A stretch of DNA of 64,000 nt from Escherichia coli (GTDB lineage Bacteria > Pseudomonadota > Gammaproteobacteria > Enterobacterales > Enterobacteriaceae). This document shows positions 19,706-60,431 of the stretch, one piece after another (within the stretch, counting starts at the first letter, position 1; every line of letters begins with the position of its first letter). The DNA lies in NCBI RefSeq assembly GCF_050320075.1, contig NZ_CP190018.1; one strand, written 5' to 3'. The position numbers were made by a program, and so were the translations under genes. Under the pieces are notes generated by a model. The model ran no database searches, was not told the origin of the DNA, and was given only the letters and a program-made list of their open reading frames with translations.

Positions 19706-21178
19706 ATGGTACCTGTGGTCGCGCTTGTCGGGCGCCCTAACGTAGGAAAATCCACGTTATTTAACCGTCTAACTCGCACCCGAGATGCGCTGGTTGCGGA
19801 TTTCCCGGGTCTGACTCGTGACCGTAAGTACGGTCGTGCAGAAATTGAAGGCCGCGAGTTTATTTGTATTGATACTGGTGGGATTGATGGCACCGAAGAC
19901 GGTGTAGAGACACGTATGGCGGAACAGTCGCTGCTGGCGATTGAAGAAGCGGACGTCGTACTGTTTATGGTGGATGCGCGCGCGGGCCTGATGCCGGCGG
20001 ATGAAGCGATTGCCAAACATCTGCGCTCCCGTGAAAAACCGACCTTCCTGGTGGCAAACAAAACTGACGGTCTGGATCCCGATCAGGCGGTGGTTGATTT
20101 CTACTCGCTTGGTTTAGGGGAAATCTACCCGATCGCCGCGTCTCACGGTCGTGGCGTATTAAGTCTGCTGGAGCACGTGCTGCTGCCGTGGATGGAAGAT
20201 CTCGCACCGCAAGAAGAAGTCGACGAAGACGCCGAATACTGGGCGCAATTTGAAGCGGAAGAGAACGGCGAAGAAGAAGAGGAAGACGACTTCGACCCGC
20301 AAAGTCTGCCGATCAAACTGGCGATTGTGGGTCGTCCGAACGTAGGTAAGTCTACACTCACTAACCGTATTCTTGGTGAAGAGCGCGTTGTTGTTTATGA
20401 TATGCCTGGTACGACGCGTGACAGTATCTACATTCCAATGGAACGCGATGGACGTGAGTATGTGCTCATTGACACCGCTGGCGTACGTAAACGCGGCAAA
20501 ATCACCGATGCTGTAGAGAAATTCTCGGTAATCAAAACGTTGCAGGCCATTGAAGATGCCAACGTGGTGATGTTAGTGATTGATGCGCGCGAAGGTATTT
20601 CCGATCAGGATCTCTCCCTGCTGGGCTTTATTCTCAATAGTGGGCGCTCACTTGTCATTGTGGTGAATAAGTGGGATGGCCTGAGCCAGGAAGTGAAAGA
20701 GCAGGTGAAAGAAACGCTGGACTTCCGTCTGGGCTTTATCGATTTTGCTCGTGTGCATTTTATCTCAGCCTTGCACGGCAGTGGTGTTGGTAATCTGTTT
20801 GAATCAGTACGTGAAGCGTATGACAGCTCCACCCGTCGTGTGGGGACCTCTATGCTGACGCGCATCATGACGATGGCTGTTGAAGATCACCAACCGCCGT
20901 TGGTACGCGGTCGTCGTGTGAAGCTGAAATATGCCCACGCCGGTGGTTATAACCCGCCGATTGTGGTGATTCACGGTAATCAGGTGAAAGACCTGCCTGA
21001 TTCCTACAAGCGTTACTTGATGAACTACTTCCGCAAATCGCTGGACGTAATGGGATCGCCGATTCGTATTCAGTTCAAAGAAGGGGAAAACCCGTATGCG
21101 AACAAGCGTAACACCCTGACGCCAACCCAGATGCGTAAACGTAAGCGTCTGATGAAGCACATCAAGAAAAATAAATAA
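19706..21178 (+). CDS. der: ribosome-associated GTPase Der (EngA), tandem GTPase domains
   Basis: ORF 19667-21178; start placed at ATG 19706 ([17 protein letters not shown]); two G-domains each with GRPNVGKS P-loop. Confidence 0.9.
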
Positions 21179-24526: not shown

Positions 24527-26104
24527 ATGACGGAAAACATTCATAAGCATCGCATCCTCATTCTGGACTTCGGTTCTCAGTATACTCAACTGGTTGCGCG
24601 CCGCGTGCGTGAGCTGGGCGTTTACTGCGAACTGTGGGCGTGGGATGTGACAGAAGCACAAATTCGTGACTTCAATCCAAGCGGCATTATTCTTTCCGGC
24701 GGCCCGGAAAGCACCACCGAAGAAAACAGCCCGCGTGCGCCGCAGTATGTCTTTGAAGCAGGCGTACCGGTATTCGGCGTTTGCTATGGCATGCAGACCA
24801 TGGCAATGCAGTTGGGCGGTCACGTTGAAGCCTCTAACGAACGTGAATTTGGCTACGCGCAGGTTGAAGTCGTAAACGACAGCGCACTGGTTCGCGGTAT
24901 TGAAGATGCTCTGACCGCAGACGGTAAACCTCTGCTCGATGTCTGGATGAGCCACGGCGATAAAGTTACCGCTATCCCGTCCGACTTCGTCACCGTAGCC
25001 AGCACCGAAAGCTGCCCGTTTGCCATTATGGCTAACGAAGAAAAACGCTTCTATGGCGTACAGTTCCACCCGGAAGTGACTCACACCCGCCAGGGTATGC
25101 GCATGCTGGAGCGTTTTGTGCGTGATATCTGCCAGTGTGAAGCCCTGTGGACGCCAGCGAAAATTATCGACGATGCTGTAACTCGCATCCGCGAGCAGGT
25201 AGGCGACGATAAAGTCATCCTCGGCCTCTCTGGTGGTGTGGATTCCTCCGTAACCGCAATGCTGCTGCACCGCGCTATCGGTAAAAACCTGACTTGCGTA
25301 TTCGTCGACAACGGCCTGCTGCGTCTCAACGAAGCAGAGCAGGTTCTGGATATGTTTGGCGATCACTTTGGTCTCAATATTGTTCACGTTCCGGCAGAAG
25401 ATCGCTTCCTGTCAGCGCTGGCTGGCGAAAACGATCCGGAAGCAAAACGTAAAATCATCGGGCGCGTTTTCGTTGAAGTATTCGATGAAGAAGCGCTGAA
25501 ACTGGAAGACGTGAAGTGGCTGGCGCAGGGTACTATCTACCCTGACGTTATCGAATCTGCGGCGTCTGCAACCGGTAAAGCACACGTCATCAAATCTCAC
25601 CACAACGTGGGCGGCCTGCCGAAAGAGATGAAGATGGGCCTGGTTGAACCGCTGAAAGAGCTGTTCAAAGACGAAGTGCGTAAGATTGGTCTGGAGCTGG
25701 GCCTGCCGTACGACATGCTGTACCGTCACCCGTTCCCGGGACCAGGCCTTGGCGTTCGTGTTCTGGGTGAAGTGAAGAAAGAGTATTGTGACCTGCTGCG
25801 CCGTGCTGACGCCATCTTCATTGAAGAACTGCGTAAAGCGGACCTGTACGACAAAGTCAGCCAGGCATTCACCGTCTTCCTGCCGGTACGTTCCGTTGGC
25901 GTAATGGGCGATGGTCGTAAGTATGACTGGGTTGTTTCTCTGCGTGCTGTCGAAACCATCGACTTTATGACCGCACACTGGGCGCATCTGCCGTACGATT
26001 TCCTCGGTCGCGTTTCCAACCGCATTATCAATGAAGTGAACGGTATTTCCCGCGTGGTGTATGACATCAGCGGCAAGCCACCAGCTACCATTGAGTGGGA
26101 ATGA
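24527..26104 (+). CDS. guaA: GMP synthase (glutamine-hydrolysing)
   Basis: 525-aa ORF with GATase catalytic cysteine (GVCYGMQ) and ATP-PPase motif SGGVDSS; C-terminus ...PATIEWE intact. Confidence 0.95.
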
Positions 26105-26149
26105 TTAACAGCTAACTCATAGCAAATCATTCCTATTCAGATGCCAACT

Positions 26150-26183
26150 CAACCCTCTGTTTTTGCAGAGGGTTTTTGTTTTT
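26150..26183 (+). terminator. intrinsic terminator after guaA
   Basis: Hairpin aaccctctgtttttgcagagggtt followed by tttgttttt. Confidence 0.7.
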
Positions 26184-26296
26184 ATGTATTCATTTCTATT
26201 CACTCTACACCATATTTTTCGGCGGTACAGGTGACGGTATTACCTTAAAGGTATACTCTCATACCGTCATGAAAATGGTTTCTATACGGGTGAATT

Positions 26297-27547
26297 GTGC
26301 TTACCGATACAAAATTAAAAAACCTCAAGCCGCAGGACAAACTGTACAAGGTCTCCGATCGTGACGGGCTGTATGTAGCTGTGCTTACGTCAGGCACGGT
26401 CTCATTTCGTTATGACTACCGTATCAACGGTCGCCGCGAAACACTGGTAATCGGGCAGTATGGGCGTGACGGTATCAGCCTGGCAGAAGCGCGGGAAGAA
26501 CTGATTGCTGCAAAGAAGCTGCTTAAAGCAGGCCAGTCACCGGCTGCGGCTAAACGTGACGGTATCAAAAAGATTCGTGGTGCCGAAACGTTTGCGGTAC
26601 ATACCGACAGTTATATGAAACACGTCATCCTGGCTGAAAGTACCCGCGCAATGAAGCAGGCAGTGATCGACCGTGACATACTTCCGGTTCTTGGCAACAA
26701 AATGATGGCTGAAATTACCACATCGATGGTTCGTGATTTGTGTGACCGGATTGTCGAACGCGGTGGCCGGGCAACAGCAGTGCAGGCCAGGGAGATCATC
26801 AGCAGCGTATACCATCACGCCAATGACCGTGGTCATGGTTTGTTTAATCCTGCGGCTGACATTAAGCCTTCGTCTATCGCCATATTTAAACCACGAGAGC
26901 GAACACTGACACCAGAAGAAATTGGCCTGTTCTTCCGCACGTTGGATGCCATTGGTGCTATGGGCACTATGAAAATGGCTTTAAAACTGGTGCTTATCAC
27001 TATGGTTCGTAAGGGCGAATTCACCAATGCAACGTGGGATGAAATAGATTTTAAAAAATGGACATGGACAATTCCTTCAGACCGCATGAAGGGAAGCCGG
27101 GCGCATGTTATTTACCTGCCTAAACAGGCTCAGGATATATTGGTCGGGTTGCAGATGTGCGCTGGTGGAAGTGAATATCTGGTTCCTGGTCGTTACAATT
27201 TCCGGAAGCCATTATCTAATGCCGCGCTGAACTCTCTGATCGACAGAACGGTGAAAATAATAAATGAAGATGGTGAGCATATTCAGGATTTCACCGTACA
27301 CGATATGCGCCGTACAGCCAGTACGTTGTTGCATGAGGCTGGTTATCCTTCAGACTGGATTGAAAAGGCTCTGGCACATGAGCAGAAAGGTGTGCGCGCC
27401 GTATATAACAAAGCGGAATACGCCAGACAGCGCGCCTACATGTTGCAGCAGTGGGCCGATATGATAGATTCCTGGATTAACGGGGAGCATACGGATCTGA
27501 TTCCGTTCTCCCCGTCGAAGTTTGAGAAGTGGATGGCGAGGGAATAA
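26297..27547 (+). CDS. int: tyrosine integrase (P4-type, arm-binding N-terminal domain)
   Basis: 416-aa ORF; N-terminus TDTKLKNLKPQDKLYKVSDRDGLYVAV; catalytic HxxR (HDMRRT) and C-terminal Tyr region; lies at the prophage-host junction. Confidence 0.9.
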   Translation: MLTDTKLKNLKPQDKLYKVSDRDGLYVAVLTSGTVSFRYDYRINGRRETLVIGQYGRDGISLAEAREELIAAKKLLKAGQSPAAAKRDGIKKIRGAETFAVHTDSYMKHVILAESTRAMKQAVIDRDILPVLGNKMMAEITTSMVRDLCDRIVERGGRATAVQAREIISSVYHHANDRGHGLFNPAADIKPSSIAIFKPRERTLTPEEIGLFFRTLDAIGAMGTMKMALKLVLITMVRKGEFTNATWDEIDFKKWTWTIPSDRMKGSRAHVIYLPKQAQDILVGLQMCAGGSEYLVPGRYNFRKPLSNAALNSLIDRTVKIINEDGEHIQDFTVHDMRRTASTLLHEAGYPSDWIEKALAHEQKGVRAVYNKAEYARQRAYMLQQWADMIDSWINGEHTDLIPFSPSKFEKWMARE

Positions 27548-27550
27548 CGT

Positions 27551-27745
27551 TTAATTATTCTGCTGATTTTCTTCCATCTCGGCTTCTGCTGCCAGTGATT
27601 CAATTTTATCTGTGAATATTGCTGACAGTGTTGCAAATTCAGCATCAGTGACAGCGGGAATTGGAACAAACCTGATCCCGCTGTGTGCAAGCATGTTTGC
27701 AGTTTCAAGGCATTTCCTTAAATCTGCTGGTGATGCCCTGTTCAT
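27551..27745 (-). CDS. hypothetical small phage protein (64 aa)
   Basis: ATG overlaps the stop of the upstream methyltransferase gene (ATGA), consistent with translational coupling. Confidence 0.45.
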   Translation of the reverse strand: MNRASPADLRKCLETANMLAHSGIRFVPIPAVTDAEFATLSAIFTDKIESLAAEAEMEENQQNN

Positions 27746-28404
27746 GCTGCACGCTCCCGCCCCTGGTTGTCTGTTGGTGACAGCGGAGCATTGCTGAATG
27801 CATTTGTTAATCTGGCAATATCCAACGCGTATCCAGGGTGTAGTTGCACTGCCGGGTCTTCGCACTGATTACCCCAAACATCGAAACCATGAGACGACTG
27901 GCGGGCGAACAGTTCAATGCGAGAAACATCGCCTAACAATTGCACAAGTTTTTCACGAACGATATCTGGTTTTCTTGAATGCTCAAGCCGCGGTGCGGTA
28001 AATGACTGAACGATCCCTGCATTAATGCGCGTAGGTAGTTTTCCCTTTACTGCAAACAGGCAATCTTCACTATTGGCGCGAGTCATGTGACCCATACCCA
28101 TAACCAGTTTATCTGGTTGTCGACTACCACATTTTATCCACGTGAATCCCTTCATGGTCATCAGACGGAATCCCCAGGCCTCAACAACTTTTAGTGCTTC
28201 GAGTGGTTGTGTTGGCACCCACCACATGGCCAACAGACAGTTTTCATCGGCCAAATCCCACACAGGAAGGCGGCAGATATCCAGCACACTCATAACCGGA
28301 TATTTAAAACCGGCACCGCGATTACCATCTGCGGCTTTGTCCCGGTATACCCAGGGTGGATCTGCATAGATTAGTGTGTATTTCTTAGTCATAAACCACC
28401 CCAC
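27742..28404 (-). CDS. MT-A70-like DNA N6-adenine methyltransferase
   Basis: Protein begins ...MTKKYTLIYADPPWVY; DPPW is the catalytic motif of MT-A70/N6-adenine methyltransferases; start may be the second Met (28392). Confidence 0.8.
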   Translation of the reverse strand: MGWFMTKKYTLIYADPPWVYRDKAADGNRGAGFKYPVMSVLDICRLPVWDLADENCLLAMWWVPTQPLEALKVVEAWGFRLMTMKGFTWIKCGSRQPDKLVMGMGHMTRANSEDCLFAVKGKLPTRINAGIVQSFTAPRLEHSRKPDIVREKLVQLLGDVSRIELFARQSSHGFDVWGNQCEDPAVQLHPGYALDIARLTNAFSNAPLSPTDNQGRERAA

Positions 28405-28684
28405 AACATCCTATGCCGCTATAGTCGCCACGGCGAAGGCCGTTACCTTTTGTGATACATTGGTCCCTGCGAACCGCGATCCTTGCACGCTCAACATCAC
28501 CAGAAGCAACATCCATACACTGAAGCCAAAGGTGAGCGGCAATGCGGAACTGCCCTTTTTTCTCTCTTTCAATCGCGCGTTTTTCGATCTCTATCGCCGC
28601 AGGAGTAACGGCGACAATCTTTGACGGACTGCGCATTGAAACCTTGTTCATGTGATATTTTTCAAGTCGGCTTAACTTTCTCAC
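28385..28684 (-). CDS. hypothetical small protein, possibly a small regulator; start uncertain
   Basis: Minus-strand ORF in the early leftward operon, ending just inside the methyltransferase start. Confidence 0.4.
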   Translation of the reverse strand: MRKLSRLEKYHMNKVSMRSPSKIVAVTPAAIEIEKRAIEREKKGQFRIAAHLWLQCMDVASGDVERARIAVRRDQCITKGNGLRRGDYSGIGCCGVVYD

Positions 28685-28793
28685 TTAATCCAACCCTCTC
28701 TGAAAATTAATGCCAGCAGATAAAGCCATGCTGAAACAGAGGCCAGGAATAAGTACCATCCTGACCATTTGCTCCAGTGCCTTAGCAGCACAC

Positions 28794-29042
28794 TCATGCC
28801 GCGTTGCTCACGGGACGATATACACGTTGCTGAACAGGAGGTTTTTTACCCTGGAACTCTGCCGGGCTTGCTGCCTGACGTTCATCAAGCCAACGCTCAA
28901 CTTCATCACGGTTCCATGCGCAGCGTTTATCGGTGATATACCAGCGTTTAGGAAATTCCCCTGCGCGCTCCATACGGTCGATAGTGCTCCATGACAGTGG
29001 AACCACCGCCAGGAGTTCCTTCTTACCTAATGCACCTTTCAT
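28794..29042 (-). CDS. AlpA-like HTH regulator / excisionase family protein
   Basis: 82-aa protein with the pattern ELLAVVPLSWSTIDRMERAGEFPKRWYI...WNRDEVERWL typical of the AlpA prophage regulator fold. Confidence 0.6.
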   Translation of the reverse strand: MKGALGKKELLAVVPLSWSTIDRMERAGEFPKRWYITDKRCAWNRDEVERWLDERQAASPAEFQGKKPPVQQRVYRPVSNAA

Positions 29043-29091
29043 AAATACCTCTCTTGGTTGCAGTGCGGCGCGCGTGGCGCCGCGGTGGTGG

Positions 29092-30033
29092 TTACATAGA
29101 TGTTTCGTTTAATTCTTCCCGACGAACGCTGTAAACGTCGGTGGCTTTTGCCAGCAGTTCGTCATCATCTGAAAGTTTTTGTGCAATGTATTTGTAAGCC
29201 TTATCCAGTTCGGAGACAGTGCTGTAATTCATCGCTGCGCTGGTAAAGGCCATCAGCATTTCTTCTGGATCACGGCTGTCCGATTTACGCGTTTGCTCAT
29301 CAGGCTTTTTCGCTGGTTTAGCGTTGATCAGACTGTTCATTCCCGCAGCAGTGGTCGTTTGCGGAGTAATGTCTCGCTCAACGCGCGGTGCCGTTTCCTG
29401 TAATTCGTCTGGGGTGTAGACGCCCATGATTACGTCAGGACAGTGCAGGCGAGACCAGCGTTTTGTCGCAAGGTATGCGAGTTGTTGTTTCGGATCACTG
29501 GCCCAAAGTGTGGAGTTTCTTACCTGTGCTTGAGACAGCATTAACTCAAGCACTCGAGGTTGATCCTCGCCCTTCATGGTTGCCCATACGCGAACACCGC
29601 AGCCTTCTTCGTCTTTTAGAGTCCAGCCTGGTGCGATATATGGATTGCCGTTTTTGGATGTTTTCTCAACAAACTTACCGATCACGCGTTCCCACGGCCC
29701 GAACCACTCGTAGTTGATGCGATCTTTTGTTGGCGACATCGTTGAGATAACTGCGTTTACTAATTGGGCTTCATAACCTAGCGTGCCGTTCACAACATGG
29801 GTTTTCTGAGCCACGGCAAACGGGTTCATTCCCCACTGCGCAGCCTGCATTGCCACGGCCATGCAATCAGCTGGTTTCCCGGCGAGGTGCGCCGGTACCG
29901 TTACGCGGCTTTGCGCCATTACCTCGGCGAATTTCATCAGTTGGTTCAAGCCGTCTGGGCTGAAAATAGTTGCAGCAGTTCCAGCGATTGCTGTGTCTAC
30001 TGGTGCGTTGATGTTTGCGATGTCGTTGCTCAT
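29092..30033 (-). CDS. RecT-family single-strand annealing recombinase
   Basis: ORF 29092-30060; start placed at the Met directly following the stop of the upstream exonuclease gene; RecT-like sequence (...GTLGYEAQLVNAVISTMSP...). Confidence 0.75.
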   Translation of the reverse strand: MSNDIANINAPVDTAIAGTAATIFSPDGLNQLMKFAEVMAQSRVTVPAHLAGKPADCMAVAMQAAQWGMNPFAVAQKTHVVNGTLGYEAQLVNAVISTMSPTKDRINYEWFGPWERVIGKFVEKTSKNGNPYIAPGWTLKDEEGCGVRVWATMKGEDQPRVLELMLSQAQVRNSTLWASDPKQQLAYLATKRWSRLHCPDVIMGVYTPDELQETAPRVERDITPQTTTAAGMNSLINAKPAKKPDEQTRKSDSRDPEEMLMAFTSAAMNYSTVSELDKAYKYIAQKLSDDDELLAKATDVYSVRREELNETSM

Positions 30034-30851
30034 ATGTACATATCCTGTTTGCGTGCCCACTCAGGGCGTTTAATGATTTCCACACCGCCCCATTCATCAT
30101 TGATGCGGCATTCGTGATAGGTATTCAGATCCCGGCGGAACAGAGCGTGCCCGGCATCGACATCCTGCGCATCCAGCTCGAACACGCGTACCGGATACCG
30201 ACCACAATCAATGCTTTCGCTCACGGCAAGAAAGAAAAAACCATGCGGCTGACCAGTAACCCTCATTGCGCCTTCGCGGTACATTGCGTCCTGCACGTGG
30301 TAGCGGAATTCCTCGATGTGGCGTGCAAAACGGTCCATATCTGCAACCTTTTTCACGTCGACGATCACGTTGTGCTCGTTCAGCCATTTGTCTGGACGAA
30401 TTCGGCACAACTCCCCCGTCTCTTCATCGTTCCAGTACATTGATGCTTCGCAGTAACCAGGTGCTTCCAGCATCCAGCGTGCCGCCGGGTGAGCCATTGC
30501 GCTATCACGCATCAGCTCCAGTTTCCGCCACTGCTCGGCATCAAGTACCGTAATCCCCATATCCGCCACATCACGAAGAAATTCCTCTTCGTCAGCTTTA
30601 CCTTGTTTCGTCCGACGATCGAATTTCGGTGAAACAATGAAGCGTTTGTCGAACTCTCCAGGCTCCAGAAGCAGACAGTGCAATGCGGTTCCCATATCCA
30701 GTGCAGACTTTTTCTCTTCGTCTTCTGGTGCTGCCTGAACCCATTTAAGAAGCGCCGGATTCTTGGCAACCATGTCCAGTTGCGACTTACTCACGCCGTC
30801 ACCGGCGTGGTAGTCTTCGTTGCTGATGTCGAAATAAATTCCCGGTTTCAT
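30030..30851 (-). CDS. PD-(D/E)XK exonuclease (RecE/YqaJ-like recombination exonuclease)
   Basis: 273-aa protein MKPGIYFDISNEDYHAGDGVSKSQLD...; pairs with the downstream RecT as a RecET-like module. Confidence 0.7.
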   Translation of the reverse strand: MKPGIYFDISNEDYHAGDGVSKSQLDMVAKNPALLKWVQAAPEDEEKKSALDMGTALHCLLLEPGEFDKRFIVSPKFDRRTKQGKADEEEFLRDVADMGITVLDAEQWRKLELMRDSAMAHPAARWMLEAPGYCEASMYWNDEETGELCRIRPDKWLNEHNVIVDVKKVADMDRFARHIEEFRYHVQDAMYREGAMRVTGQPHGFFFLAVSESIDCGRYPVRVFELDAQDVDAGHALFRRDLNTYHECRINDEWGGVEIIKRPEWARKQDMYI

Positions 30852-31147
30852 GCCGCGTCCCTCTGTCCATCAAGCTGATCCGCCAGATCCCAGCGGGCGA
30901 TAATTGCCATTGCCTCTCGCCGATAGGCATCCATCAGTTCTTCGAACTCAGGGCTGTCTTTAGCAGCCTCCAGTACTTCCTGGCGAACGCCTTTAACTGT
31001 TACAACGTCGAAAGTTGATGCCAGTTGATGAAGCCGGATACTCTCAATCAGTTCAACTTGTCGGTCATATAGCTGTTCTGACAGACGGTAGTCCTTGTCG
31101 AATGCCAGCATGATTTTTTGAAGATTTTTCTGCTGATTAACGTTCAT
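30848..31147 (-). CDS. hypothetical phage early protein
   Basis: ORF 30848-31162; the ATG at 31147 sits 2 nt after the stop of the upstream small ORF. Confidence 0.45.
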   Translation of the reverse strand: MNVNQQKNLQKIMLAFDKDYRLSEQLYDRQVELIESIRLHQLASTFDVVTVKGVRQEVLEAAKDSPEFEELMDAYRREAMAIIARWDLADQLDGQRDAA

Positions 31148-31149
31148 TA

Positions 31150-31302
31150 TCAGCCCTCCCATATCTCGTTATCGTTGGCCACATCGCGAGCTTCTTTGCT
31201 GACGAAAGCCCACTTAATGCCTTCCTGTAAGGTGCGGAACTTCCAGCTCATGAATCCGCATGCAGTAACGCAGTACCAACCGTTGATGATTTTCCACTGC
31301 AT
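31150..31302 (-). CDS. small Cys/Trp-rich ORF (50 aa), first gene of the leftward early operon
   Basis: Manually translated: MQWKIINGWYCVTACGFMSWKFRTLQEGIKWAFVSKEARDVANDNEIWEG; GAGG ribosome-binding site upstream; below the ORF-track length cutoff. Confidence 0.35.
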   Translation of the reverse strand: MQWKIINGWYCVTACGFMSWKFRTLQEGIKWAFVSKEARDVANDNEIWEG

Positions 31303-31409
31303 AACTTGTTACCTCGGTCTGTTACCGTTGAGGTAATAATTATGCGTATATGGTTTGATGTCAATAGATATGAGTTAAAAAAATTACCCGTTAGGTAATC
31401 GAATAGGCA

Positions 31410-31435
31410 ATAAAAAAGCCGCCATAAGGCGGCTT
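31410..31435 (-). terminator. intrinsic terminator after the repressor gene
   Basis: Hairpin gccgccataaggcggc followed on the minus strand by a U-run. Confidence 0.6.
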
Positions 31436-31455
31436 ACTTACTGAAAAATATGGTT

Positions 31456-32040
31456 TTATTGTTTGTTTTTTTCGTTCTGGTTGATGACAAATTCAATGTA
31501 ACTTTCGATCTTTGCTTTCTCGGTTTCGGGTAACAATGCGTAGCGCGAGCGATCATAGTTGATGGTCGCAGGGTCGTGCGGGTGAATCAGTAATTCATAG
31601 CCGTGACGCCCGAATGCGGATGCAACATTCTCCAGGGTGGAAATGGAAACGCTGACCTCATTGTTTAACAGGCGGCTGATTGTCACCTGGGCTACGCCGG
31701 ATGCGCGGTGAAGTTTTCCCTGTGTTGAAAGGTCGCGGCTTTCGCTCATCCAGCGTTCCAGGTTGTGAGCCGCCAGCTGGCCAATGTCGCTTGGGCCGAC
31801 AGGCTGAAAACCTTCCTGAGAAAGCGAGCGATCGATATCAAGCCAGTTACGGGGTTTATTGGCGGCAGCTTCAATTTTTCGCGCAACCTGATCGCCGATA
31901 ACCTTCTTACCAAGAGCCCAGCGGTTTACCAGATTTGCCTGAGTTCCAAGTTTTTCAGCCATCCGCGTCTGAACACCATTGAATTCACGGTCGATCAAGT
32001 CGTTGAGATTTTGCCTGCGGACGTCCTGGATACTTTTCAT
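31456..32040 (-). CDS. prophage repressor candidate (CI-like), tandem HTH domains, no recognisable S24 peptidase domain
   Basis: 194-aa protein; HTH-like segments QTRMAEKLGTQANLVNRWALGKK and LHRASGVAQVTISRLLNNEVSVSISTLENVASAFG; divergent from a Cro-like gene across an operator-rich gap. Confidence 0.65.
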   Translation of the reverse strand: MKSIQDVRRQNLNDLIDREFNGVQTRMAEKLGTQANLVNRWALGKKVIGDQVARKIEAAANKPRNWLDIDRSLSQEGFQPVGPSDIGQLAAHNLERWMSESRDLSTQGKLHRASGVAQVTISRLLNNEVSVSISTLENVASAFGRHGYELLIHPHDPATINYDRSRYALLPETEKAKIESYIEFVINQNEKNKQ

Positions 32041-32194
32041 TTTCTGGAAAATCGCCTCATATATGAATCAGTAGATGATTCAATTTAAAGCAATATTACC
32101 CAACAGGTAAATGCACCTCATGGGTAACTATCCTTGATTTTTGTTACCTTATGGGTGAATATTTATTATCTGAAATAAATATCAGGCAATAGCT
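32041..32194. promoter_or_regulatory. divergent repressor/cro control region with three palindromic operator-like sites
   Basis: TTACC-caaca-GGTAA (32096-32110), gCACC-tcatg-GGTAA (32113-32127), TTACC-ttatg-GGTGA (32144-32158) between the divergent genes. Confidence 0.55.
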
Positions 32195-32425
32195 ATGAGC
32201 GATAACGGACATTTCGATTTCAAAAAGCACTGGCTTGCACTTACTCCGGATGAGCGTGAAGCCTTCGCACAGGAAGCCGGAACGACGAGTCACTATATCC
32301 AGACTCACTTAACAGGTAAGCGCAAAATGCCAGGTAAAGTATTGATGAATGGGCTTTTTAAAGCCTGTAAAACAAGACAATGGCTGCGCTCAAAAGCAGA
32401 ACTGGCATACTTCTTCTACTCATGA
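32195..32425 (+). CDS. Cro/CII-like small HTH regulator
   Basis: 76-aa ORF directly across the operator region from the repressor; HTH-like segment AQEAGTTSHYIQTHLTGKRK. Confidence 0.5.
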   Translation: MSDNGHFDFKKHWLALTPDEREAFAQEAGTTSHYIQTHLTGKRKMPGKVLMNGLFKACKTRQWLRSKAELAYFFYS

Positions 32426-32575
32426 TATCCAGCTACAACCCTCTGTAGACCGCCACCCGGCGGTCTTTTCATATCTATTCGTACCTCAAAGGTAATAAAA
32501 AACCAAATATGGTTGATATTTTTTTTGTGTCAGCACAAAATGACCGTAATCCCAATACTAATAACAGGGCTTACC

Positions 32576-32776
32576 ATGGAAATCATTACACGTATTGATG
32601 CCGCAAAGCGCGGACTTAAACGCTACTACACCGGAAAAACATGTAAGCACGGACATGACAGTGAACGCTGGGTTTACAACGGACACTGTGTTGAGTGCAC
32701 CATGGAATCAAACCGTCGTATCAGGGCAGAGATTAAGCAGATCATGATTAATTCCTCCCCACAACATTCAAGCTGA
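32576..32776 (+). CDS. hypothetical zinc-ribbon protein
   Basis: ORF 32513-32776 starts with a TTG; ATG 32576 gives MEIITRIDAAKRG... with a CKHGH...CVEC metal-binding pattern. Confidence 0.4.
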   Translation: MEIITRIDAAKRGLKRYYTGKTCKHGHDSERWVYNGHCVECTMESNRRIRAEIKQIMINSSPQHSS

Positions 32777-32791
32777 TAGCGGAGATTAATC

Positions 32792-33607
32792 ATGAGCAGA
32801 CATGCAACAGATTGGGCCTGGGAGACAGATCCAGGTAGCTCATCATTAAAGCTCATACTGCTCTCGATGGCTGACAGAGCCGATGAATATAACCTCTGCT
32901 ACCCCAGCATAGAACGCCTCGTTAAAGACACTTGCCTGAATAAAAAAACCGTGCAGGCCGGGCTTATATCGCTCATGAAAATGGGGCTTATTTCAGATAC
33001 CGGAGAGAGAAAGGGAGCGACAAAAAGAGTGCGGGTTTTCTCTCTTAATATAACCAAAAACGGGAACATTAAAGGCAACCGGGAAGGGGGTAATGAACCC
33101 GAAATCGGTAATGTTACCGAAAACGGGAATATACCCAAAAACGGGATGTTGAATGATCCCAAAAACGGGATGTTGAATGATCCCAAAAACGGGATCCAGA
33201 ACCAGTCATATAACCAGTCATTTAACCAAGAGAGGGAGAGCAGGACAAAAAGCGGGGATTCTGTGCCTCATGACCCCGGAGCAAACAACGCCGTGATGAA
33301 TAACTTTGTTCCTCCTGGTGGGCCAGGGCAATTAGGCAAATTTGTCATGCATGAACAATGGCAGCCATCAGATGACTTTCTTCGGAAAAGCTCATTGCAG
33401 GGGATCTACCTGGACAGTCTGCCAACGGCACAGGAACTTGCAGAGTTCAGAATTTACTGGATGGCTGAGGGTAAGGCATACCATCAGGCACAGTGGGAGC
33501 AGAAGCTGGCAAGGCGGCTGCAGATTAGCAGACAGAAGCAATCAACATTACCTGATAACAACGTTCCGCACTGGAACAGCCCTGAAGCATGGGAGGATTT
33601 CTTGTGA
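32792..33607 (+). CDS. replication initiator, lambda O-like (N-terminal winged-HTH, iteron-encoded linker, DnaT-like C-terminal region)
   Basis: 271-aa ORF; tandem DNA repeats inside the gene encode a low-complexity linker (PKNGMLNDPKNGMLNDPKNG), as in lambda O; followed by a P-like gene. Confidence 0.65.
   Translation: MSRHATDWAWETDPGSSSLKLILLSMADRADEYNLCYPSIERLVKDTCLNKKTVQAGLISLMKMGLISDTGERKGATKRVRVFSLNITKNGNIKGNREGGNEPEIGNVTENGNIPKNGMLNDPKNGMLNDPKNGIQNQSYNQSFNQERESRTKSGDSVPHDPGANNAVMNNFVPPGGPGQLGKFVMHEQWQPSDDFLRKSSLQGIYLDSLPTAQELAEFRIYWMAEGKAYHQAQWEQKLARRLQISRQKQSTLPDNNVPHWNSPEAWEDFL
33054..33225. repeat. iteron cluster (candidate replication origin) inside the O-like gene
   Basis: Five copies of CC(A/G)AAAACGGGA (about 33054, 33117, 33134, 33158, 33182), the last three as exact 24-bp tandem units, followed by a doubled aaccagtcat. 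Confidence 0.6.
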
Positions 33608-34389
33608 ACAACGTTTTTACCGCGATACAAAACCGTGACGGAGAAGCCCTTTCTCGCATGTCAGGTTATGAGCATCAGTACGTCAACAATGACAATGTGG
33701 TGAACATGTCAGCAGAGAGGCTTGTTGATGCCCTTTTTAAACAGCTGAAACAACTGTTTCCGGCGGCAGTGGTAACCAACCTGAAGACGCCAGAGCAGGA
33801 AGTTGCTGCAAAACAGCAGTGGATTGCTGCGTTTGCCGAAGGGGGGATCCGAACCCGTGAACAGGTTTCTGCTGGTATGCGCCACGCCCGCGCCAGTGAA
33901 TCTCCGTTCTGGCCGTCTCCAGGGCAATTTATCAAGTGGTGCAAAGACAGCAAGATGGTTCTTGGCGTCACCATTGACGATGTGATGGCGGAGTTTCACC
34001 GGTACAGCAAGGAAAAAAGTTTATATCCTGGTGGTCCCGAAAGATTCCCGTGGCGACATCCGGTTATGTACTGGGTCGTATGTGATACCCGCCGTGCAAT
34101 GTATCAGCGCCAGCTTAGCGAGATTGAGGTTGAGAAACACGCACGCAGGCTGCTCGATGATTGGGCGAAAAAGGTGGCTTCCGGACAGCAGATACCCGAT
34201 CCGGTGATCAGCATACAGGCAAAGCCAGAGCCCATGAGTACGCCTCCGGACACAGGGAGAGACGTTTACCATCCACCAGGGCGAAGTTTCGGGTGCATGC
34301 CTAACGCCGCCACCCTTGGGGGAATAACACCGGCGCAGTGGCTGATGGAGGAATACAGGCGGGGAAAGGCGGCAGGATTTATCAAGTAA
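33604..34389 (+). CDS. replication protein P-like (helicase loader)
   Basis: ORF 33589-34389; strong similarity by eye to lambda P (QVSAGMRHARASESPFWPSPGQFIKWC versus lambda QVNAGMRVARRQNRPFLPSPGQFVAWC); GTG 33604 with GGGAGG SD overlaps the O-like stop. Confidence 0.8.
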   Translation: MNNVFTAIQNRDGEALSRMSGYEHQYVNNDNVVNMSAERLVDALFKQLKQLFPAAVVTNLKTPEQEVAAKQQWIAAFAEGGIRTREQVSAGMRHARASESPFWPSPGQFIKWCKDSKMVLGVTIDDVMAEFHRYSKEKSLYPGGPERFPWRHPVMYWVVCDTRRAMYQRQLSEIEVEKHARRLLDDWAKKVASGQQIPDPVISIQAKPEPMSTPPDTGRDVYHPPGRSFGCMPNAATLGGITPAQWLMEEYRRGKAAGFIK

Positions 34390-34506
34390 TACCAGCGCGA
34401 TAGCGCATTTTTTTACGTCTATATGATTACCTGGAAGGTAATAAAATGTTCTAATCTCTATTGATTTCATGTCTTATGTGGTTTTTAATTACCTAAGGGG
34501 TAAATC

Positions 34507-34854
34507 ATGAGAAAACAGATACAGGCTCTTGGTCGACTCAAAACAGGCCAGATGAACAAAACAGAATCTGCGTATTGCCAGCACCTTGAGCTGCGTAAAC
34601 GTGCAGGGGAAATCGCCTGGTATCGATTCGAGGGTATCAAGCTGCGGTTAGCTAATAACACGTTCTATACGCCCGATTTCGCTGTGATGCTCGCCACCGG
34701 CGAGATGGAGCTGCACGAAGTGAAAGGGGGATTCTGGACCGATGACGCCAGAGTGAAAACCAAAGTCGCCGCAGATCAGTATCCGTTCCGAATCATCGGG
34801 GTAACGGTTAAACCAAAGAAAGCAGGTGGTGGCTGGAACATCGAAGAGTTCTGA
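34507..34854 (+). CDS. hypothetical phage protein (DUF1064-like)
   Basis: 115-aa ORF in the post-replication accessory region; family assignment from memory. Confidence 0.45.
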   Translation: MRKQIQALGRLKTGQMNKTESAYCQHLELRKRAGEIAWYRFEGIKLRLANNTFYTPDFAVMLATGEMELHEVKGGFWTDDARVKTKVAADQYPFRIIGVTVKPKKAGGGWNIEEF

Positions 34855-34915
34855 ATCGACGATCTATTTAGTTATCAATGTAATCAATAAGTTATGTGGA
34901 TAAGCGAGGGTAAAG

Positions 34916-35482
34916 ATGGAAAGTAATATCAAAGGGTTAGTTGCCGCCGGGCATGAGATGGCTTCGGAACTGAAAGCAGAATGTGGTGCCGTTGATATGC
35001 GCAGTGTGGCAAAGCTGATCAGCGATTTGGCAACGCAACTGGAAGTGCAACTGGTGCGTGCTAATGCGCTGGCGGCGGAGAGTGCGGCAATGCATGAAAC
35101 TATTGAAGCCGTTCGGAGTGTTGCGGATAACTCCAGTGGAATTGCCGGATGGCATTTGAATGGCGATATCGCTACATGGGAAGAGATTCTTCCTGAAATT
35201 AACGATATCGAAACTCCAGCCACCGATGCTTTCCTGGCTGAAATTCGTGCGGAAGCACGCAACGAGGGGATTAACTATACCGCCAGCCGTCTTGCTGCTG
35301 CGTTCAATCACGGATTTATCAATAAATCTTTGCGTGAAGTTTTCGACGTTACACGCATGATTTTGTCAGCGAAAGAAGAGTTGGCTAATGAACCGCATCC
35401 GATTGATGGCCTGTCCGGTGAATATGCGGAGAAATCCCTTGAAGAATGGGCGGAACAGATTCGCAAAGGAGGCAAGCAGTGA
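34916..35482 (+). CDS. hypothetical phage protein
   Basis: 188-aa acidic ORF with good coding continuity in the accessory region. Confidence 0.45.
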   Translation: MESNIKGLVAAGHEMASELKAECGAVDMRSVAKLISDLATQLEVQLVRANALAAESAAMHETIEAVRSVADNSSGIAGWHLNGDIATWEEILPEINDIETPATDAFLAEIRAEARNEGINYTASRLAAAFNHGFINKSLREVFDVTRMILSAKEELANEPHPIDGLSGEYAEKSLEEWAEQIRKGGKQ

Positions 35483-38070: not shown

Positions 38071-38113
38071 GCATGGTACTATTACCACAACGGTAACAAT
38101 TACCATGGTGGTT

Positions 38114-38710
38114 ATGATGCCTGCTGAACCTAAAACCTATAAACGCAAATCAACGCAATTTAAGCCACTAACCGCAATGCAGGAGGCTTATTGCCAGTCA
38201 TACATCAAAACGCCTGAAAACCAGACTCAGGCAGCGATTAACGCAGGATTCTCCCCAAATACAGCGGCAGTTAAAGCCAGTGTCATGATGCGCGATGAAC
38301 GCATTCAAAAACGGATTGCCGAGTTGATGGAGGAGCGCAACAAACGAATGCGCGTCAGTGCCGATTACGTTCTCATGCGCCTGGTGGAGATCGACCAGAT
38401 GGACGTGATTGATATCCTCAATGACGATGGGAGCCTTAAGCCAATCCGCGAGTGGCCGAAAATCTGGCGCACTACGCTTAGTGGCTTTGATCTGTCATCG
38501 ACCATCATGAACATGAACGAGGATTCGATAGAGACAATTCTCAAAAAAATTAAATGGCCTGACAAGGTGAAGAACCTCGAACTGATTGGTAAGCACGTCG
38601 ACGTCAATGCATTCAAAGAACGCCTGGATGTTAATGTGAATGTGACAATTGCTGATCGCATAGCGGCAGCCAGGAAGCGACTCAAAGAACGTCAGGATGG
38701 TAATCAGTGA
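38114..38710 (+). CDS. terminase small subunit
   Basis: ORF 38036-38710; start placed at ATG 38114/38117 (MPAEPKTYKRKS...); directly upstream of, and overlapping, the large terminase gene (GTGA). Confidence 0.6.
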   Translation: MMPAEPKTYKRKSTQFKPLTAMQEAYCQSYIKTPENQTQAAINAGFSPNTAAVKASVMMRDERIQKRIAELMEERNKRMRVSADYVLMRLVEIDQMDVIDILNDDGSLKPIREWPKIWRTTLSGFDLSSTIMNMNEDSIETILKKIKWPDKVKNLELIGKHVDVNAFKERLDVNVNVTIADRIAAARKRLKERQDGNQ

Positions 38711-40272: not shown

Positions 40273-40644
40273 TTATTGCTCGCTTAACTTCTGCTTCAGC
40301 AAGTAACCTTCAAGCATCCAGATTTTGTTTACAGCATTCTGCCGGGCAATCTTCCGACCAATTTCCGCATCAAAGTTTTCCGGGCTTGCACAGGCGCTCT
40401 CTCCGGTGACGGTGAAGCCGTTGCGCAGCACCAGAACGCAGAACGTCAGCAGAGAAAGTGATTCGTGCGGCTGGTAGTTTACCTCTCCGCCAGTATGTTT
40501 CGCTTTTATGGCTACGCCAAAGACACCATCTTCTGCTGTGAAATATGCCTCCTGAGCAATAATGCTCTCGATATGGTCTGGCGTAACGCGCGGCGCGGCT
40601 AAACCTTTAGCCTGAATTTCAGATTCAATGTCTTTGTCACTCAT
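40273..40644 (-). CDS. hypothetical phage protein
   Basis: 123-aa minus-strand ORF inserted between terminase and portal genes; AAGGTGA SD upstream. Confidence 0.45.
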   Translation of the reverse strand: MSDKDIESEIQAKGLAAPRVTPDHIESIIAQEAYFTAEDGVFGVAIKAKHTGGEVNYQPHESLSLLTFCVLVLRNGFTVTGESACASPENFDAEIGRKIARQNAVNKIWMLEGYLLKQKLSEQ

Positions 40645-40847
40645 AGTCTAATCTCACCTTAAAAAAATGCCCGGCGAACCGGGCGAACTGGAAGCAATGA
40701 GTTATGCCTTCCGTGGCTGTACTGGTTTACAGCATGAAGTCATCGCAATGGCGTCCTGCTGTAAAAAGGGCGGTGATAGTCCTTCAAGGGAAACCATCAC
40801 CGCCAAGCACCTGGAACTTCTGGCATCACGGTCCTTAGGCGTGATTC

Positions 40848-40924
40848 TGGCGTGGCATGCAGGATTCGAACCTGCGACCAACCGCTTAGAAGGCGGTTGC
40901 TCTGTCCAACTGAGCTAATGCCAC
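40848..40924 (-). tRNA. tRNA-Arg (anticodon UCU), phage-encoded
   Basis: Manual cloverleaf: acceptor GTGGCAT/ATGCCAC, D-arm GCTC/GAGC, anticodon stem ACCGC/GCGGT, loop CTTCTAA (UCU), T-arm GCAGG-TTCGAAT-CCTGC, discriminator G, CCA encoded; closely resembles host argU. Confidence 0.85.
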
Positions 40925-41352
40925 AACGCTGAGAGCACTTAGCCTGTTAAGTGCGCCACACTTTGTCGCAGCTCCATAAATGCTCTCATCGTTGTACCCT
41001 CGTCTCTTCCGAGGCGTCACACCGAATCGCCGGGATGGTGAATCCCCGTGCGCGGAATAAAACCGCTCGACTTGCACATTCCGGCTACCTGGTTCGTTTG
41101 CCCGAGCAAGGGAGGGTGCCCCTTAAACGTATCCAGACCGCTATCGGCGCATGTGCCATACGCCGTACTGCTCAAAATAAAAGCTCACTCCACCTGTTCA
41201 ATTTAACGACAAGCCAGTCAGGTTAATAACCGGAATGAACCATTTACTTACCTGAAAGGTAATAATTCGTGCGTTAAATGTCAACTACCTACGATAAATA
41301 AATCATATGTGGTTAAATTGGTAATAATTTAATTGCGTACGGAGTCATTGAT

Positions 41353-58871: not shown

Positions 58872-58977
58872 TCGACTTTACCAATCGGGTAATTTTAAAC
58901 ATGAGTATAATGCTTTTAACTGCAACGAGTGTAAACAATTATTGATAATTGTAGGCACATCCCTGTGCCGCCGCCCG

Positions 58978-59664: not shown

Positions 59665-59817
59665 AGTGATCACCTTTGTAGTTAGGTTAATCACCACTAC
59701 CGACGCCAATCGGTTGGTGGTGAACTGTGCAGGGTTGGCGTAACCGGCTACAAAGGACCCGGCGCACCTTTCGGTGCCCCCACACAGCCCACCATAGAAT
59801 AGGTGCGCTTTACACAT

Positions 59818-59838
59818 AAAAAAAACCGCTTATGCGGC
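59818..59838 (-). terminator. intrinsic terminator after the 90-aa gene
   Basis: Hairpin ccgcataagcgg followed on the minus strand by eight U. Confidence 0.5.
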
Positions 59839-59977
59839 ATATGTGCCTCTGTAGTAACTCGGGACGCCAATCCCGGCACTGGATTTTGCCAGTGCCCGAT
59901 TACTATGGCACAAGAGGAGTGCGTTGTAAATTTACCGCAAAGGTAAATATAAGCACTCCACTTGGCAATTGCAAACC

Positions 59978-60250
59978 TTATCTGGTTTGTTTTCGTAATT
60001 GTTCGGCACAATAGTCGAGATGTGTTTGCAGATCCCGCATAGACATCTGTGAGCTGGTGACGTAGTTAATCAGTGCAGTCAGTTCGGCAAGTGGGCCATC
60101 GACATTAAATCCATCCTTATCGAGATCCCGGAGTAATTTCATCAAGTGCGATCCCTCCACCAGTGACCTGACGCCTCCCGGCGTGTGAATCCTTTCGGTA
60201 AATCCGTCTTCCAGTGGATAGTGATACTGCTGCATCTTAATCTTCTCCAT
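59978..60250 (-). CDS. small protein similar to the C-terminal region of the adjacent antirepressor
   Basis: 90-aa ORF; LMKLLRDLDKDGFNVDGPLAELTALINYV...RDLQTHLDY parallels LMNLLNQLQDDGHDVSGAAAELTTMFCYI...RDIQTHAEY in the Bro protein. Confidence 0.45.
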   Translation of the reverse strand: MEKIKMQQYHYPLEDGFTERIHTPGGVRSLVEGSHLMKLLRDLDKDGFNVDGPLAELTALINYVTSSQMSMRDLQTHLDYCAEQLRKQTR

Positions 60251-60431
60251 GCAATAACTGTATATTTATACAGTATCAAATAATTTGTTTGCTATCCAGC
60301 ACGTTTTGCAAATTACCTGAAAGGTAATATCTATTCATATTCACAGTCTTTCTATCCATATATGGTTTTTTGGGTAATAGAATAACCAGATATGCGGCGC
60401 AACGGGTGCTGCGACTATCTGGAGATTTAAC

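Follow-up and report, generated by a model that had tools for sequence, protein, structure and literature searches.

Three putative Rep operators between rep and a divergent cro-like gene in a phiV10-like Uetakevirus prophage of Escherichia coli

The immunity locus and its prophage

The window analyzed in this work (the whole 64,000-nt stretch of Escherichia coli contig NZ_CP190018.1) contains two divergently oriented genes, the 194-aa repressor gene rep on the minus strand and a 76-aa cro-like gene on the plus strand, which flank a gap holding three copies of the palindrome TTACC-N5-GGTAA, referred to as O1, O2 and O3 (Table 1). The original prediction of three such palindromes, one perfect and two with one or two mismatches, was borne out by reading the sequence and by pattern searches, and the centers at 32103, 32120 and 32151 reproduce the proposed center-to-center distances of 17 and 31 bp.

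The element that hosts this locus is a phiV10-like Uetakevirus prophage integrated at guaA, which extends from position 26090 to the end of the window. Its gene order, with a leftward recombination operon, rep, the divergent cro-like gene and the replication genes, is the one that marks Uetakevirus, and the attachment core sequence ATTGAGTGGGAATGATT at its left end has been reported for the phages ZX5, phiV10 and epsilon15 (PMC9782041). Over the rep-cro region the sequence matches Escherichia phage EC.W1-9 at 100% and phiV10 at 98% identity, and the identity to EC.W1-9 is at least 99.8% over positions 26090-35251. Blocks of 97-100% identity to EC.W1-9 or phiV10 make up about half of the prophage part, and some of the tail and accessory regions are diverged or replaced. 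Prophages of this type are very common in E. coli, with the immunity region present in 540 of 5,426 complete genomes.

Table 1. Features of the prophage immunity region and other operator-associated loci in the window; mismatches are counted against TTACC-N5-GGTAA, and promoters are predicted
Feature	Position	Strand	Sequence or match	Remarks
Attachment-site core	26090-26106	plus	ATTGAGTGGGAATGATT	3' end of guaA, left prophage end
Proximal operator of leftward early promoter	31322-31336		perfect	abuts -10, covers expected transcription start
Leftward early promoter	31336-31364	minus	TTGACA, 17 nt, AATTAT	10/12 consensus matches
Distal operator of leftward early promoter	31384-31398		perfect	20 bp upstream of -35, 62 bp from proximal operator
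rep	31456-32040	minus		194-aa SPC32H/epsilon15-type repressor
Putative rep promoter	32083-32111	minus	-35 TTTACC (32111-32106), 17-nt spacer, -10 TTAAAT (32088-32083)
O1	32096-32110		TTACCCAACAGGTAA, 0 mismatches	sequence read and pattern search
O2	32113-32127		GCACCTCATGGGTAA, 2 mismatches	degenerate; pattern search and conservation
Putative rightward promoter, -35	32134-32139	plus	TTGATT	-10 at ~32157-32163; would serve cro-like gene
Alternative rightward promoter	32141-32146 (-35), 32164-32169 (-10)	plus	TTGTTA, 17 nt, TATTAT	consensus scan
O3	32144-32158		TTACCTTATGGGTGA, 1 mismatch	pattern search and alignment
cro-like gene	32195-32425	plus		76-aa HTH protein, epsilon15 gp39 homologue
Terminator-like hairpin	32447-32466	plus		directly 3' of cro-like gene; annotated terminator in phiV10
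Operator after cro-gene terminator	32481-32495		GTACCTCAAAGGTAA, 1 mismatch	ahead of next rightward genes
Second 62-bp pair, upstream operator	34427-34441		perfect	ahead of 115-aa gene at 34507
Second 62-bp pair, downstream operator	34489-34503		perfect	covers ribosome-binding site, 3 nt before ATG at 34507
terS operator pair	38082-38114		38082 perfect, 38100 1 mismatch	18 bp apart; immediately upstream of small-terminase gene
Portal-operon operator	41248-41262		perfect	upstream of operon; corresponds to annotated epsilon15 site 2931-2947
Accessory-gene operator	58878-58892		perfect	between two leftward accessory genes; intergenic in EC.W1-9
isrK/C4 operator	59932-59946		perfect	ahead of leftward isrK/C4/large-antirepressor unit
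ant	59978-60250	minus		small antirepressor, 90 aa
LexA box	60258-60273		CTGTATATTTATACAG, near-consensus	8 bp upstream of ant
Tailspike operator	60313-60327		perfect	between ant and tailspike genes; corresponds to annotated epsilon15 site 19895-19911

The Rep repressor and the cro-like protein

The tandem helix-turn-helix (HTH) character proposed for the 194-aa protein is confirmed by two HTH-type Pfam matches; only HTH_3-type matches, in two regions of Rep, are given by Pfam, and no Peptidase_S24 self-cleavage domain is found. Rep aligns over its full length (residues 1-190, E = 4e-42) with the repressor of phage SPC32H in PDB entry 5D50, and its residues 89-190 align with 5D4Z, a 92-198 fragment of the same protein. 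The N-terminal domain and the recognition helix are conserved between the two repressors (the helix NLVNRW is invariant although the overall identity falls to ~43%), and the middle and C-terminal parts are diverged.

Our knowledge of the SPC32H and epsilon15 operators is drawn from GenBank features and from later citing papers. The SPC32H repressor was described as a tetramer on palindromic DNA, with N-terminal domains paired across dimers, that is disabled by the antirepressor Ant (PMC9638917, PMC9986798). This tetramer has two DNA-binding pairs (PMC9638917), and the protein is composed of an N-terminal DNA-binding domain, a middle HTH-like dimerization domain, and a C-terminal domain that is involved in tetramerization and is the target of Ant (PMC9986798). 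A repressor identical to Rep is encoded by phage ZX5, where its overexpression abolished free phage and cut the mRNA of holin and endolysin by more than 99.9% (PMC9782041); operator binding by this repressor was only speculated on by the authors of that 2022 study (PMC9782041).

The Cro/CII-like assignment of the 76-aa protein is supported by a match to the phage 'transcriptional repressor' family phrog_35 (E = 5.6e-13), though Pfam gives no match. Its HTH segment AGTTSHYIQxHLT is invariant in five phages, and the protein as a whole is more conserved than Rep.

Distribution of the operator motif in the prophage

Perfect copies of TTACC-N5-GGTAA occur 10 times in the window versus 0.03 expected, and none of 100 shuffled sequences reached this number, on which basis chance matches were rejected as the source of the palindromes; with at most one mismatch allowed, 15 copies are found versus 1.0 expected. 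As had been proposed, the same palindrome recurs throughout the prophage, with all 10 perfect copies located in the prophage part (from 26090) and the 26 kb of host DNA free of them. These copies all fall into the ~9% of prophage DNA that is non-coding, for which the chance is ~4e-11, a figure that is partly circular because the non-coding set came from hand-curated genes. In the depositors' annotation of EC.W1-9 all 11 perfect sites are intergenic. The start of the small-terminase gene annotated in phiV10 would put one operator in coding DNA, and we treated this start as too early because four other records begin the gene downstream of the site. Combined into a matrix, 49 perfect sites from five genomes give the consensus A-TTACC-WWWWW-GGTAA-T.

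Operators are found at ~10 further non-coding positions outside the central cluster, several of them just upstream of late genes. The pair of perfect copies originally noticed at the start of the leftward early operon (31322 and 31384) is present a short distance upstream of the first leftward gene (31150-31302, minus strand), and the block GTCAATAG at the predicted leftward early promoter is invariant in six genomes. The same geometry is observed for the second 62-bp pair, where a putative TTGATT-17 nt-TTTAAT promoter lies between the operators at 34427 and 34489. The operator at 32481 is found at the equivalent place in phiV10 and Tyrion, and the counterpart of the terS operator is annotated as 'repressor' in epsilon15 at positions 12-27. 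Since at least eight non-coding regions besides the central one have an operator, single or in a fixed pair, next to a predicted promoter or a gene start, this distribution suggests that one repressor silences most of the prophage transcription units.

Comparative conservation and the identity of the DNA-binding protein

The perfect motif occurs 8-11 times in each of the phages phiV10, EC.W1-9, epsilon15, SPC32H, Tyrion (Enterobacter) and BUCT711 (Klebsiella). Positions and spacings are kept in phiV10, Tyrion, epsilon15, SPC32H and BUCT711, including the central triple with 17 and 30/31 bp, the leftward pair with 62-63 bp (in six genomes), the post-replication pair with 62 bp, and the terS pair with 18 bp. 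The alignments have invariant half-sites, with a variable N5 spacer and mostly variable surrounding DNA. The GenBank record of epsilon15 contains seven 'protein_bind, repressor, lysogeny' features, all of them ATTACC-N5-GGTAAT; the three sequences that lie between rep and gp39 are also present but carry no such feature. No operator annotation was found in the phiV10-type and E. coli records inspected, and a full-text literature search returned nothing further on the motif or on the SPC32H operator.

More distant Rep homologues were collected in an exhaustive representative search, and four of their genomic contexts were inspected. Two prophages with Rep homologues of 42-50% identity have the same 17-bp pair with a divergent 75-aa gene adjoining it, and ATTACC-N4-GGTAAT sites closely precede the cI gene of a Pseudomonas phage, whose product is related to Rep in the N-terminal domain only; thus the motif travels with the Rep-type DNA-binding domain. 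Near the homologues P0023 and P0026 (33-38% identity), one of which is outside a phage context, no TTACC palindromes were found. A word-indexed protein search with the N-terminal domain of Rep returned close fragments only.

The three palindromes are almost certainly the Rep-binding sites of a phiV10/epsilon15-type immunity switch. The palindromes could instead serve mostly a different regulator of the phage, such as the 76-aa cro-like protein, with Rep acting elsewhere or sharing some of the sites, and the invariance of the cro-like HTH across the genus, together with the stronger conservation of that protein compared to Rep, would fit such an assignment. However, the depositors of the epsilon15 record took the motif to be repressor-binding, the association of the motif with the Rep DNA-binding domain reaches as far as the Pseudomonas phage cI, and both the recognition helix of Rep and the half-sites are invariant, so that we consider another main regulator improbable. 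Sharing of sites by Rep and the cro-like protein would be normal for a switch of this kind.

Being short palindromes, the repeats might also represent RNA hairpins, restriction-modification targets or recombination sites and not protein operators; the phage encodes DNA methylases, and for some of these gaps the epsilon15 record also lists RNase III sites. A terminator would, however, need more than a 5-bp stem with a 5-nt loop, and real terminators are found separately nearby. Across the 49 sites of five genomes the half-sites are invariant, the loop is variable, and no compensating stem substitutions are observed; these properties argue for sequence-specific recognition, and the reading as RNA hairpins or terminators was rejected on this basis. 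The absence of the sites from coding DNA makes them unlikely methylation targets, and in the regions aligned across six genomes they hold fixed positions relative to the -35 and -10 boxes. We give almost no credence to a function other than that of protein operators.

The preferred explanation, which we hold with considerable confidence, is that the three sites form the central operator cluster in the immunity switch of this guaA-integrated, phiV10-like Uetakevirus prophage, and that this cluster is bound by the 194-aa Rep protein.

Operators and promoters of the central cluster

Around O1, ATATTACC-N5-GGTAAA is invariant in the six genomes aligned. Sites with two mismatches arise at a background rate of ~0.6 per kb, and O2 is without significance by itself; it was accepted as real because of its conservation across genomes and not on its own match score. 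The O2 columns ACC...GGTAA are invariant in six genomes, the site is a perfect copy in epsilon15, SPC32H and BUCT711, and in all six genomes compared it is located 17 bp from O1 and 30-31 bp from O3.

The promoters assigned to this gap are putative and correspond to consensus matches backed by conservation. The most likely rep promoter is TTTACC-17 nt-TTAAAT, from which transcription would start near 32076. On the minus strand a T always precedes the rep-proximal operator, which yields TTTACC as the probable -35 box. The pattern TTTACC-17 nt-T(T/C)(T/A)AAT is found in all eight sequences compared, including the prophages with Rep of 42-50% identity, with TTAAAT, TTTAAT or TCTAAT as variants of the -10 box. 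O1 overlaps the -35 box and the spacer of this predicted promoter, and O2 is centered near -44. A rep promoter near 32044-32067, leaderless or very close to the gene, was rejected, as its predicted transcription start lies inside the gene.

On the side of the cro-like gene, six genomes share the unchanged block TTGATTTTT between O2 and O3. TTGATT is a good candidate for the -35 box, with which the rightward promoter would have O3 across its spacer and -10 region; the alternative TTGTTA-17 nt-TATTAT promoter likewise overlaps O3. By comparative footprinting, O2 sits between the two predicted -35 boxes. These comparative data uphold the original view of the gap as a repressor/cro intergenic control region of a prophage, with the operators located on and between two predicted back-to-back promoters.

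In the proposed mechanism, Rep bound at O1 would limit its own synthesis, because this operator covers the -35 box and the spacer of the predicted rep promoter, and Rep bound at O3 would exclude RNA polymerase and shut off rightward lytic transcription, because O3 lies inside the core of the predicted rightward promoter. O2 probably stabilizes Rep binding, given the report of two DNA-binding pairs in the Rep tetramer. The location of the best-consensus site on the presumed promoter of the repressor itself would imply a tight negative autoregulation. In the study of phage ZX5, overexpression of an antirepressor lowered rep mRNA by 75% (PMC9782041), which runs counter to simple negative autoregulation, as the latter predicts a rise. 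A possible explanation of this drop is a shut-off by a lytic function.

Antirepressor and the expected induction route

The small antirepressor Ant is 87% identical to Ant of SPC32H and also matches phrog_450. By analogy with SPC32H, induction is expected to proceed through a LexA-controlled antirepressor and not through self-cleavage of the repressor: DNA damage would remove LexA from the ant promoter, and Ant would then bind the C-terminal part of Rep, freeing Rep from DNA. An extra large antirepressor is encoded in the prophage behind the isrK and C4 RNA genes.

These features bear on a strict lambda-type CI/Cro switch, in which the lytic operators are occupied first, the middle site mediates activation, the repressor undergoes RecA-stimulated self-cleavage, and the operators are confined. 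Such a switch shares with the locus the three operators between divergent repressor-like and cro-like genes and the operator pair at the leftward early promoter, and the position of O2 near -44 of the putative rep promoter is close to that of lambda OR2. On the other hand, Rep lacks an S24 peptidase domain and is homologous over its whole length to SPC32H Rep, which is not cleaved; the prophage has an ant gene preceded by a LexA box; the best-consensus site lies on the predicted promoter of the repressor itself; and the ~10 further non-coding operator positions include several upstream of late genes. We therefore regard the strict lambda-type switch as very unlikely and favor the Rep/Ant system of the SPC32H and epsilon15 type.

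Fixed spacing of the operators

The 62-bp distance corresponds to about six helical turns and the 31-bp distance between O2 and O3 to about three, and the distances O1-O2 (17 bp) and O1-O3 (48 bp) are non-integral in helical turns. It is plausible that a Rep tetramer with two DNA-binding pairs contacts both sites of a 62- or 31-bp pair, and the fixed operator geometry in the six phage genomes, and partly in the two distant prophages, may reflect an obligatory binding of the tetramer to two sites. If this is the case, promoters would be held in DNA loops of very small size, and direct control of almost all transcription units, including the late operons, would fall to one repressor.

Another motif that is both conserved and oriented is TATRTGGTT. 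A joint reading, in which obligatory two-site binding of the Rep tetramer is combined with near-genome-wide gating and with TATRTGGTT promoters that need another phage regulator, is offered here as a tentative one that we hold to be rather doubtful.

Implications and comparison with known systems

With the site map, targets for reporter, footprint and ChIP work are at hand. The map can help to predict cross-immunity between phages of the epsilon15, SPC32H and phiV10 types, which have common half-sites and a common recognition helix, and to interpret prophage induction in pathogenic strains such as O157. It also supplies the sequence context for the SPC32H structural model with two DNA-binding pairs.

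The C1/immI (c4-ant) system of phage P1 is similar to the one described here in having one repressor with many dispersed operators, an antirepression-based induction, and an operator that precedes a unit of C4 antisense RNA and antirepressor. In P1, however, the operators are asymmetric 17-bp sites, and C1 is not known to belong to the XRE-type HTH proteins, whereas the sites of the present prophage are palindromic and Rep has HTH_3-type matches only. Many sites spread over the genome are also characteristic of the 'stoperator'-type regulons of P1 C1 and mycobacteriophages; those sites are asymmetric, oriented with transcription, and in many cases located in transcribed or coding regions, in contrast to the palindromic sites described here, with 10 of 10 perfect copies in non-coding DNA.

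The lambda OR/OL-like layout put forward in the original prediction holds for the arrangement of the sites, with three operators between divergent repressor and cro-type genes that overlap two putative back-to-back promoters, one operator on each promoter core and one between them, and a separate leftward promoter with its own operators. The analogy is only partly right because Rep would be a non-cleaved, antirepressor-controlled repressor, the operators are dispersed, and the apparent order of affinity, as judged by consensus match, is reversed. In lambda the repressor is self-cleaving, and here the S24 domain is absent and induction by an antirepressor is expected; the lambda operators are confined to the right and left regions, and those found here are dispersed over the whole genome; and the best-consensus site lies here on the predicted repressor promoter and not on the lytic promoter. 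The lambda operators are spaced by 23-24 bp versus 17 and 31 bp in this cluster, and the Rep-type repressor reportedly forms a tetramer that has two DNA-binding pairs.

The closest counterparts are the Salmonella phages SPC32H and epsilon15. The SPC32H Rep/Ant system (5D50, 5D4Z) has in common with the prophage a repressor homologous over its full length and without S24, the Ant protein, the LexA box ahead of ant, the same motif at the same genome positions, the triple with 17 and 30 bp, and the 62-bp pairs. The differences are a perfect O2 and an O2-O3 distance of 30 bp in SPC32H versus a degenerate O2 and 31 bp here, the extra large antirepressor behind isrK/C4 in the present prophage, and the host, which is Salmonella for SPC32H and E. 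coli in this case. With epsilon15 (AY150271.2) the prophage shares the identical consensus ATTACC-N5-GGTAAT and equivalent sites at terS, the portal operon, the tailspike gene and the leftward promoter, and after the replication genes. The switch described here is thus correctly recognized but ordinary: it is not a new kind of system but an unannotated orthologue of the one described in epsilon15 and SPC32H, with a motif that is already annotated as repressor-binding in epsilon15.

A second conserved motif beside the operators

Beside the predicted operators of Rep, the prophage repressor (TTACC-N5-GGTAA palindromes), the window carries a second conserved motif, TAT(A/G)TGGTT, in seven copies, every one on the plus strand. 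Six of these have a Rep operator or half-site 18-51 bp to their left, the remaining copy (31447) is located just beyond the rep terminator, and none occurs in the 26 kb of host DNA in the window. The motif is often included in an imperfect palindrome, A(A/T)CCATATATGGTT. Related phages keep it ahead of their genes for portal, tailspike and lysis, and its ATATGTGGTTAAATTGGTAATAATTTAA block is invariant in six genomes. The copies are associated with -10-like hexamers 16 nt past the motif start and with poor -35 boxes. TAT(A/G)TGGTT may be a signature of promoters dependent on an activator from the phage or on a second regulator; a possible activator is the PerC-like 99-aa protein encoded at 28385-28684. 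The motif carries no annotation in the epsilon15 record.

Coordinates of features in the window and in epsilon15
Feature	Position	Strand	Remark
Operator-like site TTACCTTAAAGGTAT	26240-26254		One mismatch; between attachment-site core and integrase start
TAT(A/G)TGGTT copies	31347, 31447, 32506, 34475, 41306, 60359, 63296	plus	
tRNA-Arg (anticodon TCT)	40848-40924	minus	Between terminase and portal genes
Ant-type antirepressor, 279 aa	58978-59817	minus	Comes after C4/isrK RNAs
C4 antisense RNA	59713-59799	minus	Rfam
isrK RNA	59819-59895	minus	Rfam
Operators of the epsilon15 rep-gp39 gap	33341, 33358, 33388		epsilon15 coordinates; missing from its record

Additional candidate targets of Rep

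The operator-like site TTACCTTAAAGGTAT could be a Rep operator of the integrase promoter. Its mismatch is identical in phiV10, EC.W1-9, epsilon15, SPC32H and Tyrion; in the epsilon15 record, an integrase arm site rather than an operator is marked as overlapping the equivalent site. At the operator at 41248, an abutting leftward promoter module (TTGACA..AATTAT) could drive tRNA-Arg together with a 123-aa gene (40273-40644), and the plus-strand ORFs 40667-40918 and 40951-41226 are probably non-genes. SPC32H has a tRNA-Arg in the same position.

Annotation of related phages

The small-terminase gene of phiV10 is annotated at 41-715, with a start upstream of both operators of this region (compared with 38036/38117 in the window). 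This start is probably too early, since the records of epsilon15, SPC32H, Tyrion and EC.W1-9 place it just past the two operators. The epsilon15 record omits the three operators in its rep-gp39 gap, between rep and the cro-like gene, likely because each lacks one flanking base of a stricter 17-bp pattern; two of the three are perfect TTACC-N5-GGTAA palindromes.

Possible cross-immunity and a second antirepressor unit

The half-sites are identical and the recognition helix of Rep is invariant among the window prophage, phiV10, epsilon15, SPC32H, Tyrion and BUCT711, whereas the rest of Rep diverges, down to 43% identity. Judging from these sequences, the six may therefore be cross-immune at the level of DNA binding, with specificity residing instead in the interaction of Rep with the antirepressor Ant. 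Yet the Ant proteins of the window and SPC32H share 87% identity.

Rfam matches to C4 antisense and isrK RNAs lie immediately downstream of the operator at 59932. As these precede an Ant-type antirepressor whose final ~85 residues match phrog_450, also the family of the small LexA-controlled Ant, the prophage has a second antirepressor unit. This unit is like P1 immI and bears a domain like that of SPC32H Ant.
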